Position numbers and translations under genes: made by a program
From: Escherichia coli
GTDB taxonomy: Bacteria > Pseudomonadota > Gammaproteobacteria > Enterobacterales > Enterobacteriaceae
NCBI RefSeq assembly: GCF_965641715.1
Contig: NZ_OZ282453.1
Reading direction: 5' to 3' (one strand)
Length of the DNA: 64,000 bases
Notes under the pieces: generated by a model
Databases searched by the model: none
What the model was told of the DNA's origin: nothing
Seen by the model: only the letters and a program-made list of their open reading frames with translations
In this document: positions 56,401 through 58,412 of the stretch, in pieces
Layout of the letters: every line of letters begins with the position of its first letter
Numbering within the stretch: position 1 is the first letter of the stretch

Positions 56401-56887
56401 GCAAACAACAGGAATTATCGATATCAAATATCAATGTCTCAACCTGGTGAGGTGACAAACGAATTAATGTAAATTTGAGAGCGTAGCAACCATTCGGACA
56501 CGCTAATCTCAGAGCCACCATGAGACACCTCATAATCAATAGTAATTCATCGAGCTCCAGCCAGTCGCTTGTTTCAGTAGAAAAGCCAACTGTATATACT
56601 GGTAATCCGATACACTTTCAACTAGTCGGAAATTTTTAAACACTTCACAAATTGTACGTGTAAAGAATAGCTTAAAGTAATATATAATCCGTTTCTTTGC
56701 CGATTGTCTTACGTCTGTCTCACAATCTTTAATATGGTGTATCTGCAATAACTTCTATCCATATGAGTAAGAAGATACAATCCACCATCAAATATCATTG
56801 ATTAACCACTTAATAATACATCCACGAAATCGTTTTATTTGTTAAACTACAGCAGTCTGTTATTGATAGACCGCTGTAACAAAAGTC

Positions 56888-57904
56888 TTAATTGGATGAA
56901 AAGTAAAGAGTTGTACTGGGGTATGCAAAATCTGCTTTGTGATTATGCACAATATCAACAATTCTCAGATAAACTTTTTGCTGAATGTCAAGCCACTCCT
57001 CCCAGTCCCTTGTATAAGTGAAACAATACACCATAATATTCAATGAGGAATCCCCAAACTCGTTAAAATAAACAAGCAACGTCTGTCTTTGATCTATACT
57101 CTCTTCATGCATAAGATAATTACGAATATCTTCCACAATGAGCGAAATTTTTTTAGAATCCTCATATCGTAAACCAATCGTTGTTTTTATTCTCCTATTA
57201 GTCATTCTACCAGGGTTTTCTAAAGAAATATCAGAAAATAATGAGTTTGGGATATACATTGGCCTGTTTTCAAAAGTAATTACCTTTGTCAATCTCCAGC
57301 CGATTTCAGCAACAACACCCTCGATATTTCTATCCGGTGAACGAATCCAATCACCAATGTTAAATGGACGATCAAAATATAGCATAACACCAGAGAAGAA
57401 ATTACTTAGAATATCTTTGCCAGCCATGCCAACAGCGATACCCCCAATCCCACCAAAGGCAAGCAACCCGGAAAAACTCATGCCAACTTGCTGGCCGAAA
57501 ACCAATAAAGATATCAATAAAACTATTATTTTTAGAACTTTTGAAATTACTCTTGAATCAGTTACATCACGCCCTTTACTTACTTGCCTTCTCTCTAAAT
57601 AATCAATAACAATAAATGCCTTTCGTATAAAAACAGTAACAATCAACAATATTGAAAGTATCCTTACCACTGTCCTGGAAAGATATTTTATGTGAAAACC
57701 ATCGATTAAAAAAGACAAGTAATCTCCGATCAAAATAATAATACACGACCAGAGAAGTAAACTTAACAAACATCCAATAACTATGTAGTTCTTCTTACTA
57801 AAGCGAACCATGTAAAAATTAACAACAAGCGCAACAATAGCCAACAGCATAAAAATTACGCCAAGTGAGTTATGAATAAAAACATCGCGAAACATCAATA
57901 TCAC
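56888..57904 (-). CDS. MscS-family mechanosensitive-channel-like membrane protein (YnaI-like), low-GC prophage cargo
   Basis: 338 aa, N-terminal TM helices then GGIGGIAVGMAGKDILSNFFSGVMLYFDRPFNIGDWI...NRPMYIPNSLF and C-terminal MscS beta/alpha-beta domains; AT-rich flanks. Confidence 0.75.
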   Translation of the reverse strand: MILMFRDVFIHNSLGVIFMLLAIVALVVNFYMVRFSKKNYIVIGCLLSLLLWSCIIILIGDYLSFLIDGFHIKYLSRTVVRILSILLIVTVFIRKAFIVIDYLERRQVSKGRDVTDSRVISKVLKIIVLLISLLVFGQQVGMSFSGLLAFGGIGGIAVGMAGKDILSNFFSGVMLYFDRPFNIGDWIRSPDRNIEGVVAEIGWRLTKVITFENRPMYIPNSLFSDISLENPGRMTNRRIKTTIGLRYEDSKKISLIVEDIRNYLMHEESIDQRQTLLVYFNEFGDSSLNIMVYCFTYTRDWEEWLDIQQKVYLRIVDIVHNHKADFAYPSTTLYFSSN

Positions 57905-58412
57905 CTATATATCAACTACATAGAAATACTACCACCCCCTTCACAAAAAAAACAAGCAAGTAAGCACATCTTTATTTGTAAAACAATTATACATTAGGCC
58001 AAATCGACGAAAACAATCATACATTCTCATTTTACAATAAAGAATTTCTAAAACAAAAAGATACTTATATAAAATCAGCAATACGGCGCTTTCAGGTTAT
58101 ATATGCTCCATACCCCTTTACGAAGGGGAAACCAATAAACCAATCTGATGACCTAGTCAACCAATGGATGCTCAATACGTTCACCATTTTTAGCAATTTC
58201 CACTCATACAGTCAGAAATTAAACAAGCTGTGATCATATTCATGGTTTATTCCTTTTAGTGATGAACCTTGCGCACAGGAATAACCAGCCAGAGAGGGTT
58301 AACCAGACCACTACCGGTTTTCCTCAAGACTCATCCTGAAAGGTTCTCTGTTCTGTATGCACTGTGCGAAGTGCAAAAAATAAGGCCGCAGAAGCGACCT
58401 TTTCCGATGCGT

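Follow-up and report, generated by a model that had tools for sequence, protein, structure and literature searches.

Why does a temperate phage carry a gene for a mechanosensitive ion channel directly beside its lysis genes? The question is raised by a lambda-like prophage, read on the minus strand, that fills the right half of a 64,000-nucleotide stretch of Escherichia coli DNA (contig NZ_OZ282453.1, assembly GCF_965641715.1; referred to here as the window). Between the lysis cassette and the cohesive-end site (cos) of this prophage lies a 2-kb block of AT-rich DNA. Its sole substantial open reading frame (ORF; 56888..57904, minus strand) had been described in a first-pass annotation, made from the sequence without database searches, as an MscS-family channel gene resembling ynaI. 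We find that the encoded protein is a paralogue within the YnaI subfamily, and that the cassette resembles a lambdoid moron, placed in the slot that bor occupies in lambda. The reading we favour, to which we assign a probability of roughly 0.5, is that this moron serves lysogenic conversion and would add tension-gated ion release through a channel whose sensor paddles are unlike those of the host.

A search with Pfam hidden Markov models detected three MS_channel domains in canonical order, as in members of the MscS superfamily: PF21088 (MS_channel_1st, residues 122-163, E 8e-7), PF00924 (MS_channel_2nd, residues 164-231, E 3e-19) and PF21082 (MS_channel_3rd, residues 239-325, E 1e-17). The top match among solved structures was E. 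coli YnaI (E 1e-126, residues 4-336, with a single one-residue gap), and MscS itself matched at only E 1e-17. Both the family and the likeness to YnaI proposed in the first-pass annotation were thus borne out. The YnaI subfamily is marked by five transmembrane helices, MscS having two fewer at the N-terminal end. Five hydrophobic segments (12-30, 38-56, 79-97, 116-134 and 137-155) align with the segments of E. coli YnaI, and the five-helix topology was assigned from hydropathy and this alignment alone. The gene has a GC (guanine plus cytosine) content of 0.343, compared with a window average of 0.52, and 0.315 at third codon positions (GC3). A frame of 1 kb in DNA of 33% GC with such E-values is not a chance ORF. 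As far as can be judged from sequence, the protein shows all the visible traits of a working YnaI-type channel.

The gene is already present in RefSeq as a "mechanosensitive ion channel family protein". The record for the identical gene in other strains, WP_032192729.1, is annotated with 335 amino acids. A frame of 338 amino acids, as described earlier, does exist if the GTG at 57904 is used as the start. The product is more likely to consist of 335 residues, because an ATG three codons inside (57895) is preceded, at a spacing of 5 nt, by the Shine-Dalgarno sequence AGGTGA (57906-57901). Specialized profile collections contributed little. The NCBIfam scan of the channel gave five sub-threshold matches, to MscS, MscK and MscM models and none to a YnaI model. 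No family of PHROGs v4 matched the channel at E <= 0.001, whereas matches were obtained for each of its neighbours (endolysin, holins and TerB), and no family of PADLOC-DB 2.0 matched it at E <= 0.01. Four small ORFs of the module (70, 72, 46 and 60 aa) were treated as non-coding in view of missing family matches. The only exception was a partial match of the 72-aa ORF to PHROG 11159 (unknown function), which was treated as spurious as this ORF spans cos. A further ORF of 17 codons (MNMITACLISDCMSGNC) begins at 58243.

Compared with E. coli YnaI (b1330; structures 5Y4O, 6URT, 6ZYD and others), the protein belongs to the same length class, has the same five-helix topology and can be aligned from end to end with an overall identity of about 55%. 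The identity is spread very unevenly. It amounts to 24% in residues 1-110, which comprise the four sensor-paddle helices, and to 36% in residues 111-141, but the pore helix TM3a/b reaches 86% and the cytoplasmic domains, which form the cage, 72%. The pore-lining and gating residues of YnaI are S143, L146, G150, L154, M158, the kink at G160 and K161 (PMC8137935). The channel shares with YnaI S143, L146, M158, K161, the glycines G149/G150/G152 and the kink glycine G160. L154 is replaced by isoleucine, a change also present in the YnaI proteins of Salmonella, Proteus and Providencia. Unlike YnaI, the phage-borne channel is without a C-terminal tail, and its gene has a GC content of 0.34 instead of the 0.43 of ynaI.

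The gene shares neither the locus nor the clade of chromosomal ynaI. It is located in a prophage rather than in the mppA-ynaI-ynaJ locus, carriers have the two genes at two places, and a neighbour-joining (NJ) tree puts it in a clade separate from chromosomal YnaI. For these reasons we classify it as a mobile paralogue within the YnaI subfamily and not as an orthologue.

The position of the gene was clarified by comparison with lambda. The interval between Nu1 and the endolysin gene measures 2231 bp. Past Nu1, its first 220 bp or so (56182-56405) correspond to the cos region of lambda-like phages, with 91-95% identity. When aligned with the right end of lambda, the window shows conservation of cosQ and of what follows to the right of it; cosN reads GGGCGTCAGGCG in the window and GGGCGGCGACCT in lambda. 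The same interval of lambda contains bor and two small ORFs, in agreement with the earlier placement of the gene in the bor position. The GC content is 0.31-0.39 throughout the cargo (56400-58400), compared with 0.52-0.60 in the terminase and lysis genes on both sides, which also upholds the description of the DNA as markedly AT-rich.

A sister prophage in the pig isolate PEC41 (L002), inserted at the same chromosomal site, shows that the block is replaceable. Its identity to the window is 97.5% as far as 56401 and 98.4% from 58424 onwards, and the space between is taken by about 1.07 kb of unrelated DNA instead of the channel block. The replaced block thus takes in the last few codons of the endolysin gene and ends at the base adjoining cosQ, and the limits of 56401-58412 given earlier match this interval. 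Inserted between conserved modules, lacking in a close relative with near-identical flanks and differing in base composition from the surrounding phage genes, the block shows what is expected of a moron. Known lambdoid morons (lambda bor and lom, cargo of the HK97/HK022 type) are likewise absent from closely related phages and deviant in composition. A further parallel may lie in the flanking promoter-like and terminator-like signals, and another lies in an envelope protein that could alter the phenotype of the lysogen. The likeness to bor concerns the slot. Lambda bor encodes a small outer-membrane lipoprotein on the opposite strand, whereas the channel gene encodes a 335-aa protein of inner-membrane type on the late-gene strand. 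Expression of bor in the lysogen has been shown; that of the channel gene is predicted.

The block was found in 5 of 5426 complete E. coli genomes, with 99.9% identity. All five carriers are porcine isolates, namely four named enterotoxigenic E. coli (ETEC) strains and PEC422. The core ynaI gene was detected in 5416 of the genomes, with about 71% DNA identity to the query and only over its 3' 57%. It is also present in each of the five carriers, which therefore possess the phage gene in addition to core ynaI. With these values, and with about 55% identity at the protein level, the gene is not the near-identical copy of a core paralogue that, according to the first-pass annotation, would have refuted its proposal. 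Capture by local recombination at the ynaI locus was also considered and was rejected, since the window contains no DNA of the ynaI region. A tblastn search of 50,697 phage records yielded no close homologue. Eight weak matches at 25-39% identity were obtained, mostly in unannotated "Bacteriophage sp." contigs or a bacterial record. The IMG/VR scan gave four loci, two with the same E. coli arrangement and two with 70% relatives; none of the four added virion evidence. A literature search found no description of a prophage-borne YnaI-like channel, only generic mentions of MscL/MscS genes in viral metagenomes and in a predicted Staphylococcus aureus prophage clade.

The protein search nevertheless indicated that the channel gene is not a one-off. 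Close relatives were recovered at 89, 70, 67, 66, 67, 61 and 60% identity, and below them, at 53-60%, the chromosomal YnaI orthologues formed a broad plateau. In the NJ tree, the proteins P0001-P0008, P0010, P0011, P0013 and P0021 group together, apart from the YnaI groups of Escherichia/Salmonella/Citrobacter, of Yersinia and of Proteus/Providencia/Morganella. The nearest protein outside this group, P0009, is encoded beside a DUF2534 (ynaJ-like) gene as in the K-12 gene order, and therefore marks the boundary between the clade and true orthologues. Judged by the tree and the gene neighbourhoods, the channel gene is a member of a mobile YnaI-like clade that occurs in several prophage backbones.

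The neighbourhoods of the relatives (60-89% identity) vary in most respects other than the position of the channel gene directly after holin and endolysin genes. In Raoultella planticola (L010), a Q antiterminator gene, a pertussis-S1-like toxin gene, holin_8, holin_3_7 and a GH108 endolysin gene precede the channel gene, and ParB-like, TAGT and Terminase_2 genes follow. In Cronobacter sakazakii (L008), the channel gene lies between holin_8 and a packaging module of the Terminase_6 type. In the prophage encoding P0007 (L017), the order is holin_8, holin_3_7, M15 endolysin, channel, a cytochrome b561-like gene on the opposite strand, and Nu1/gpA. Altogether, the relatives follow lysis genes in prophages whose packaging modules are of four different kinds, and they also occur in remnants. 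They differ in endolysin type and in neighbouring cargo, which includes the ParB-like gene, cytochrome b561 and ADP-ribosyltransferase toxins. The channel gene is on the late-gene strand in every prophage examined. The prophage copies are AT-rich throughout, with a GC content of 0.34-0.39 in loci of 0.45-0.52. Other members of the clade occupy different settings. The Salmonella enterica relative sits between icd and a small prophage remnant, the gene for P0010 adjoins the gtrABC operon for O-antigen modification, and the gene for P0021 adjoins a resolvase gene and a plasmid-type gene. The gene for P0004 has a chromosomal-looking setting. Its neighbour is a methyltransferase gene, and a relative of this neighbour (about 66% DNA identity) lies beside the Raoultella prophage locus.

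Several observations on these loci deserve mention in their own right. The cytochrome b561-like gene of L017 (Ni_hydr_CYTB; 9080-9595, minus strand) shares the slot between lysis genes and cos with the channel gene, showing that cargo stacks there. Toxin genes lie just upstream of the lysis cassette in two prophages: an LT-II-like enterotoxin A/B pair (Enterotoxin_a and LT-IIB; L008, 71-1189) in C. sakazakii, and a gene for a pertussis-S1/Scabin-like ADP-ribosyltransferase (L010, 5111-5836) in R. planticola. YnaI-like genes also occur on plasmids. Plasmids of 289-357 kb from Enterobacter hormaechei/cloacae and Citrobacter freundii (H108-H116) carry one with 62.5% identity over residues 63-331 (for example NZ_LC532224.1, 157114-157920), and two Salmonella plasmids carry full-length copies at 55.7%. 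A literature search found no studies of mobile YnaI-like relatives, either in prophages or on plasmids.

Selection on the gene is evident from the comparison with its 89% relative (L004). The synonymous divergence (dS) is 0.45 and the nonsynonymous divergence (dN) 0.05, giving a dN/dS ratio of 0.11 for the whole gene, 0.20 for the paddles and 0.07 for the rest. The gene is intact and under purifying selection, so that disruption, the second ground on which it might have been set aside, does not apply either. Amid a heavily decayed prophage, the five porcine isolates have kept the channel gene whole. The genes for the small terminase subunit (DNA-packaging protein), portal, decoration, Lom and tail-fibre proteins are annotated there as truncated pseudogenes in RefSeq, and no large terminase gene is annotated in the prophage. 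The loci L004 to L007 have a TerB fragment joined to an endolysin pseudogene, then an intact channel gene, cos and non-phage genes. No clade locus examined has a broken reading frame, not even those of decayed prophages with pseudogene neighbours. The channel gene outlives its phage.

As had been suggested, the gene has its own upstream region, of about 0.5 kb. This region contains a candidate promoter. An element of the form TTGTnn-N17/18-TAnnAT, ending 30-40 nt before the start codon, is present in the window and in L004, L008, L010, L013, L017, L019 and L031; at the same place, L032 has ATGGCA-N19-TATGAT. The upstream DNA of the clade members is otherwise unalignable. Directly past the endolysin stop, inside the cargo module, lies a hairpin with a T-run that resembles an intrinsic terminator. 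A second hairpin, just past the stop codon of the channel gene, may also act as a terminator; the terminator scan did not call it.

These observations establish what the gene is, that it is whole, that it is replaceable cargo recurring in prophages, and that purifying selection acts on it. They can be combined into a mechanism in which promoter activity, channel activity and the fitness benefit are predictions. The block is an accessory cassette, probably self-contained, that was inserted between lysis genes and cos and encodes a second, diverged YnaI-type channel. By homology, the product should form a heptameric ion channel in the inner membrane, with a low conductance and a pore that opens when membrane tension is high. 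E. coli YnaI has a conductance of about 100 pS and, when expressed at a high level, guards a strain lacking all seven channels against downshock (PMC3508906). It opens near the lytic tension and remains open as tension falls (gating hysteresis), and its physiological role is still under debate (PMC12344017). In the lysogen, the gene may be transcribed at a low level from its own weak sigma-70-type promoter, which travels with it, and the hairpin past the endolysin gene would shield it from transcription arriving from upstream. Upon induction, the Q-antiterminated late transcript would include it as well, because this transcript crosses the interval to reach Nu1 and A once the genome has circularised. 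The extra tension-gated ion release would help the lysogen to survive hypo-osmotic downshifts. The paddles being unlike those of host YnaI, the gating threshold or lipid dependence may differ as well. The first-pass annotation chose between no functions; on balance, the evidence leans towards such a role in benefit of the lysogen.

Several points weigh against this reading. Expression and channel activity of the protein are predictions. E. coli often silences AT-rich DNA such as this. With 7 of 12 consensus positions and an extended -10 TG, the promoter-like element is a weak one. A consensus promoter scan (threshold 9/12) called nothing upstream on the strand of the gene, and found fewer sites overall than in shuffled sequences. 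The proposal of a promoter therefore depends solely on positional conservation. Native YnaI adds little to downshock survival at natural expression levels (PMC3508906), and for this reason one more copy of the YnaI type may add little. Rarity (5 of 5426 genomes, four IMG/VR loci and no close homologue among phage records) argues against a strong general advantage. Finally, a role in the lytic cycle would account just as well for the constant place on the late strand, immediately behind the lysis genes.

The best surviving alternative is that the gene is a neutral or nearly neutral passenger, which entered a tolerant slot by illegitimate recombination, is kept silent and is of no use to either phage or host. 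The very low prevalence would fit, as would the many unrelated inserts that the interval between lysis genes and cos tolerates and the strongly deviant GC content, which suggests foreign origin and possible silencing. The presence of YnaI-like genes on large plasmids of Enterobacter, Citrobacter and Salmonella points in the same direction. A passenger would not be expected, however, to show a dN/dS of 0.11 over a dS of 0.45 or to keep its gate residues. Nor would one expect its frame to be intact at every locus of the clade, decayed prophages included, or its promoter-like element to be conserved in position where the upstream DNA is otherwise unalignable. We therefore regard this explanation as unlikely.

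Somewhat more doubtful still is the idea that the channel serves the phage in lytic growth. Transcribed late, together with the holins and the endolysin, it would tune turgor or ion balance, and could thereby prevent premature osmotic rupture or sharpen the timing of lysis, with a larger burst size as the result. This idea draws on the position of the gene on the strand of the late operon directly downstream of the lysis cassette in four prophage lineages with four packaging modules and two endolysin types, and on lambda biology and gene order, according to which the late transcript has to cross the interval on its way to Nu1/A. Lysis in this prophage may also be atypical. In sister and related prophages, the endolysin gene is immediately followed by a small Cys-rich ORF that has a lipobox-like motif (…AFLLVGC…); tblastn found no homologue of this ORF in the window (57905-58412). 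In addition, RefSeq annotation and PHROGs results list no spanin-like product for the lysis cassette of the window, for which no dedicated spanin search was made. On the other hand, sister prophages with the same lysis cassette lack the channel gene, and the gene is intact, with its dN/dS of 0.11, in remnants without holins, endolysin and terminase, in which neither lysis nor packaging is possible. The promoter-like element of its own and the terminator-like hairpin that separates it from the endolysin gene also speak against a lytic role, as does the absence of matches to PHROGs lysis families. That the gene is linked to one holin pair may reflect common descent of the module.

A broader version of this thought is improbable in our estimate. 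In this version, the mobile clade represents not a plain osmoprotective spare but a membrane effector adapted to the phage and active in infection, which either times or synchronises lysis in the apparent lack of spanins or opens on membrane perturbation by another phage and thereby excludes it. The paddles of a tension-gated ion valve may then have been reshaped under phage selection. Such a role would explain why the gene sits right after the lysis genes with four different packaging modules. The point with the most potential is the recurrence of the clade at this position together with the strong divergence of the sensor paddles; sequence alone does not mark the channel as unusual biology.

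Least likely, finally, is a superinfection-exclusion or abortive-infection effector that opens upon phage-induced membrane perturbation or a phage signal and dissipates ion gradients, thereby stopping the infection. In its favour, prophage accessory slots often hold defence genes, a TIR-domain reverse transcriptase is present at the other end of the same prophage, and membrane-embedded defences that sense phage-induced membrane changes, such as Kiwa (PMC11785009), exist. Against it, no PADLOC family matches, PHROGs and NCBIfam scans of the small ORFs revealed no partner sensor gene in the cassette, and a literature search found no link. Moreover, the protein differs little in pore and cage from YnaI, which is a housekeeping ion channel of low conductance.

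If the gene is expressed and functional, temperate enterobacterial phages can transmit a mechanosensitive channel as a conversion trait, and phage carriage would be linked to survival of osmotic transitions such as that from gut to water. The protein would also be of use for biophysics, as a natural YnaI variant with an almost unchanged pore and with paddles that are 24% identical; work with paddle/pore swaps builds such comparisons by engineering (PMC12375004). A channel that selection keeps on mobile elements, even past prophage decay, would provide a handle on the conditions under which such a channel pays. Should the gene turn out to be silent or redundant, it would be one more passenger in a slot known to gather cargo.

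Table 1. Positions of the channel gene, its cassette and the surrounding prophage features. Coordinates refer to the window unless another locus is named.
Feature	Position	Strand	Basis or remark
YnaI-like MscS-family channel gene, 335 aa	56888..57895	-	Pfam, PDB match to YnaI, hydropathy, RefSeq
Low-GC replaceable cargo module, 2 kb	56402..58423	.	Whole interval from endolysin 3' end to cosQ
Promoter-like element	57926..57955	-	TTGTTT (57955-57950), 18-nt spacer, TAGTAT (57931-57926) preceded by TGg
Intrinsic-terminator-like hairpin, then T-run	58382..58401	-	Terminator scan; fold -17.8 kcal/mol, z -4.3
Hairpin with weak T-tract, possible terminator	56849..56877	-	Fold -16.6 kcal/mol, z -4.1
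cos	56359..56400	-	Alignment with right end of lambda; right-hand boundary of slot
cosQ-like GGGTCCT	56400-56394	-	Alignment with right end of lambda
cosN	56370-56359	-	GGGCGTCAGGCG; alignment with right end of lambda
Lambda-type terminase, downstream of cos	53736..56181	-	Nu1 and gpA
Nu1, 181 aa	55636-56181	-	ORF list; sister-prophage annotation
Terminase A (gpA), 641 aa	53736-55661	-	ORF list; sister-prophage annotation
Portal gene	51935-53536		Prophage head genes, along with gpW
Tail fibre and J-like genes	about 34.3-40.9 kb	-	Prophage runs from here through the head genes
Lysis cassette, upstream of cargo	58413..59617	-	RefSeq annotation of identical DNA in L001
GH108/PG_binding_3 endolysin	58413-58958	-	PHROG 315
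Holin	58960-59238	-	PHROGs match (endolysin and two holins: 315, 217, 198)
Holin	59228-59617	-	PHROGs match (endolysin and two holins: 315, 217, 198)
Small lipobox ORF in relatives	L002 5902-6036	-	
Small lipobox ORF in relatives	L017 7644-7832		
Small lipobox ORF in relatives	L010 7664-7855		
Decayed prophage regions	L001 (ETEC1730) 2998-8000 and 14444-15664		

The remaining features of the window are of secondary interest. Past the lysis genes, the prophage continues with a DUF3927 gene, a TerB-family gene, two tRNA genes and a DNA methyltransferase gene. The TerB-family ('tellurite resistance') gene (59864-60289, minus strand) lies with the DUF3927 gene just upstream of the holins. It belongs to PHROG 632, which is filed as moron/auxiliary, and so forms a second accessory cassette by the lysis genes. 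ARAGORN called three tRNAs in the late region (59767-59858, 61359-61435 and 61438-61513, minus strand). In identical DNA, RefSeq annotates the latter two as tRNA-Arg and tRNA-Ile (CAT anticodon). The 92-nt 'tRNA-Arg' at 59767-59858 is probably a false call, because it overlaps the DUF3927 ORF region and is without RefSeq annotation. Among the porcine isolates, four of five have an ISKox3 element beside the methyltransferase gene, and in ETEC1730 (L001) a SIR2-family gene is located beyond the prophage remnant.

The chromosomal part of the window matches E. coli at 97-99.5% and adjoins prfC/osmY. At this junction between prophage and chromosome, a TIR-domain anti-phage reverse transcriptase is annotated in matching E. 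coli genomes; the PEC41 counterpart consists of a TIR protein plus a reverse transcriptase. In the window, a 544-aa ORF (32043-33677, plus strand; neighbours to about 34300) was taken as the TIR reverse transcriptase from coordinates only. If so, the prophage would carry a defence gene at its tail-fibre end.

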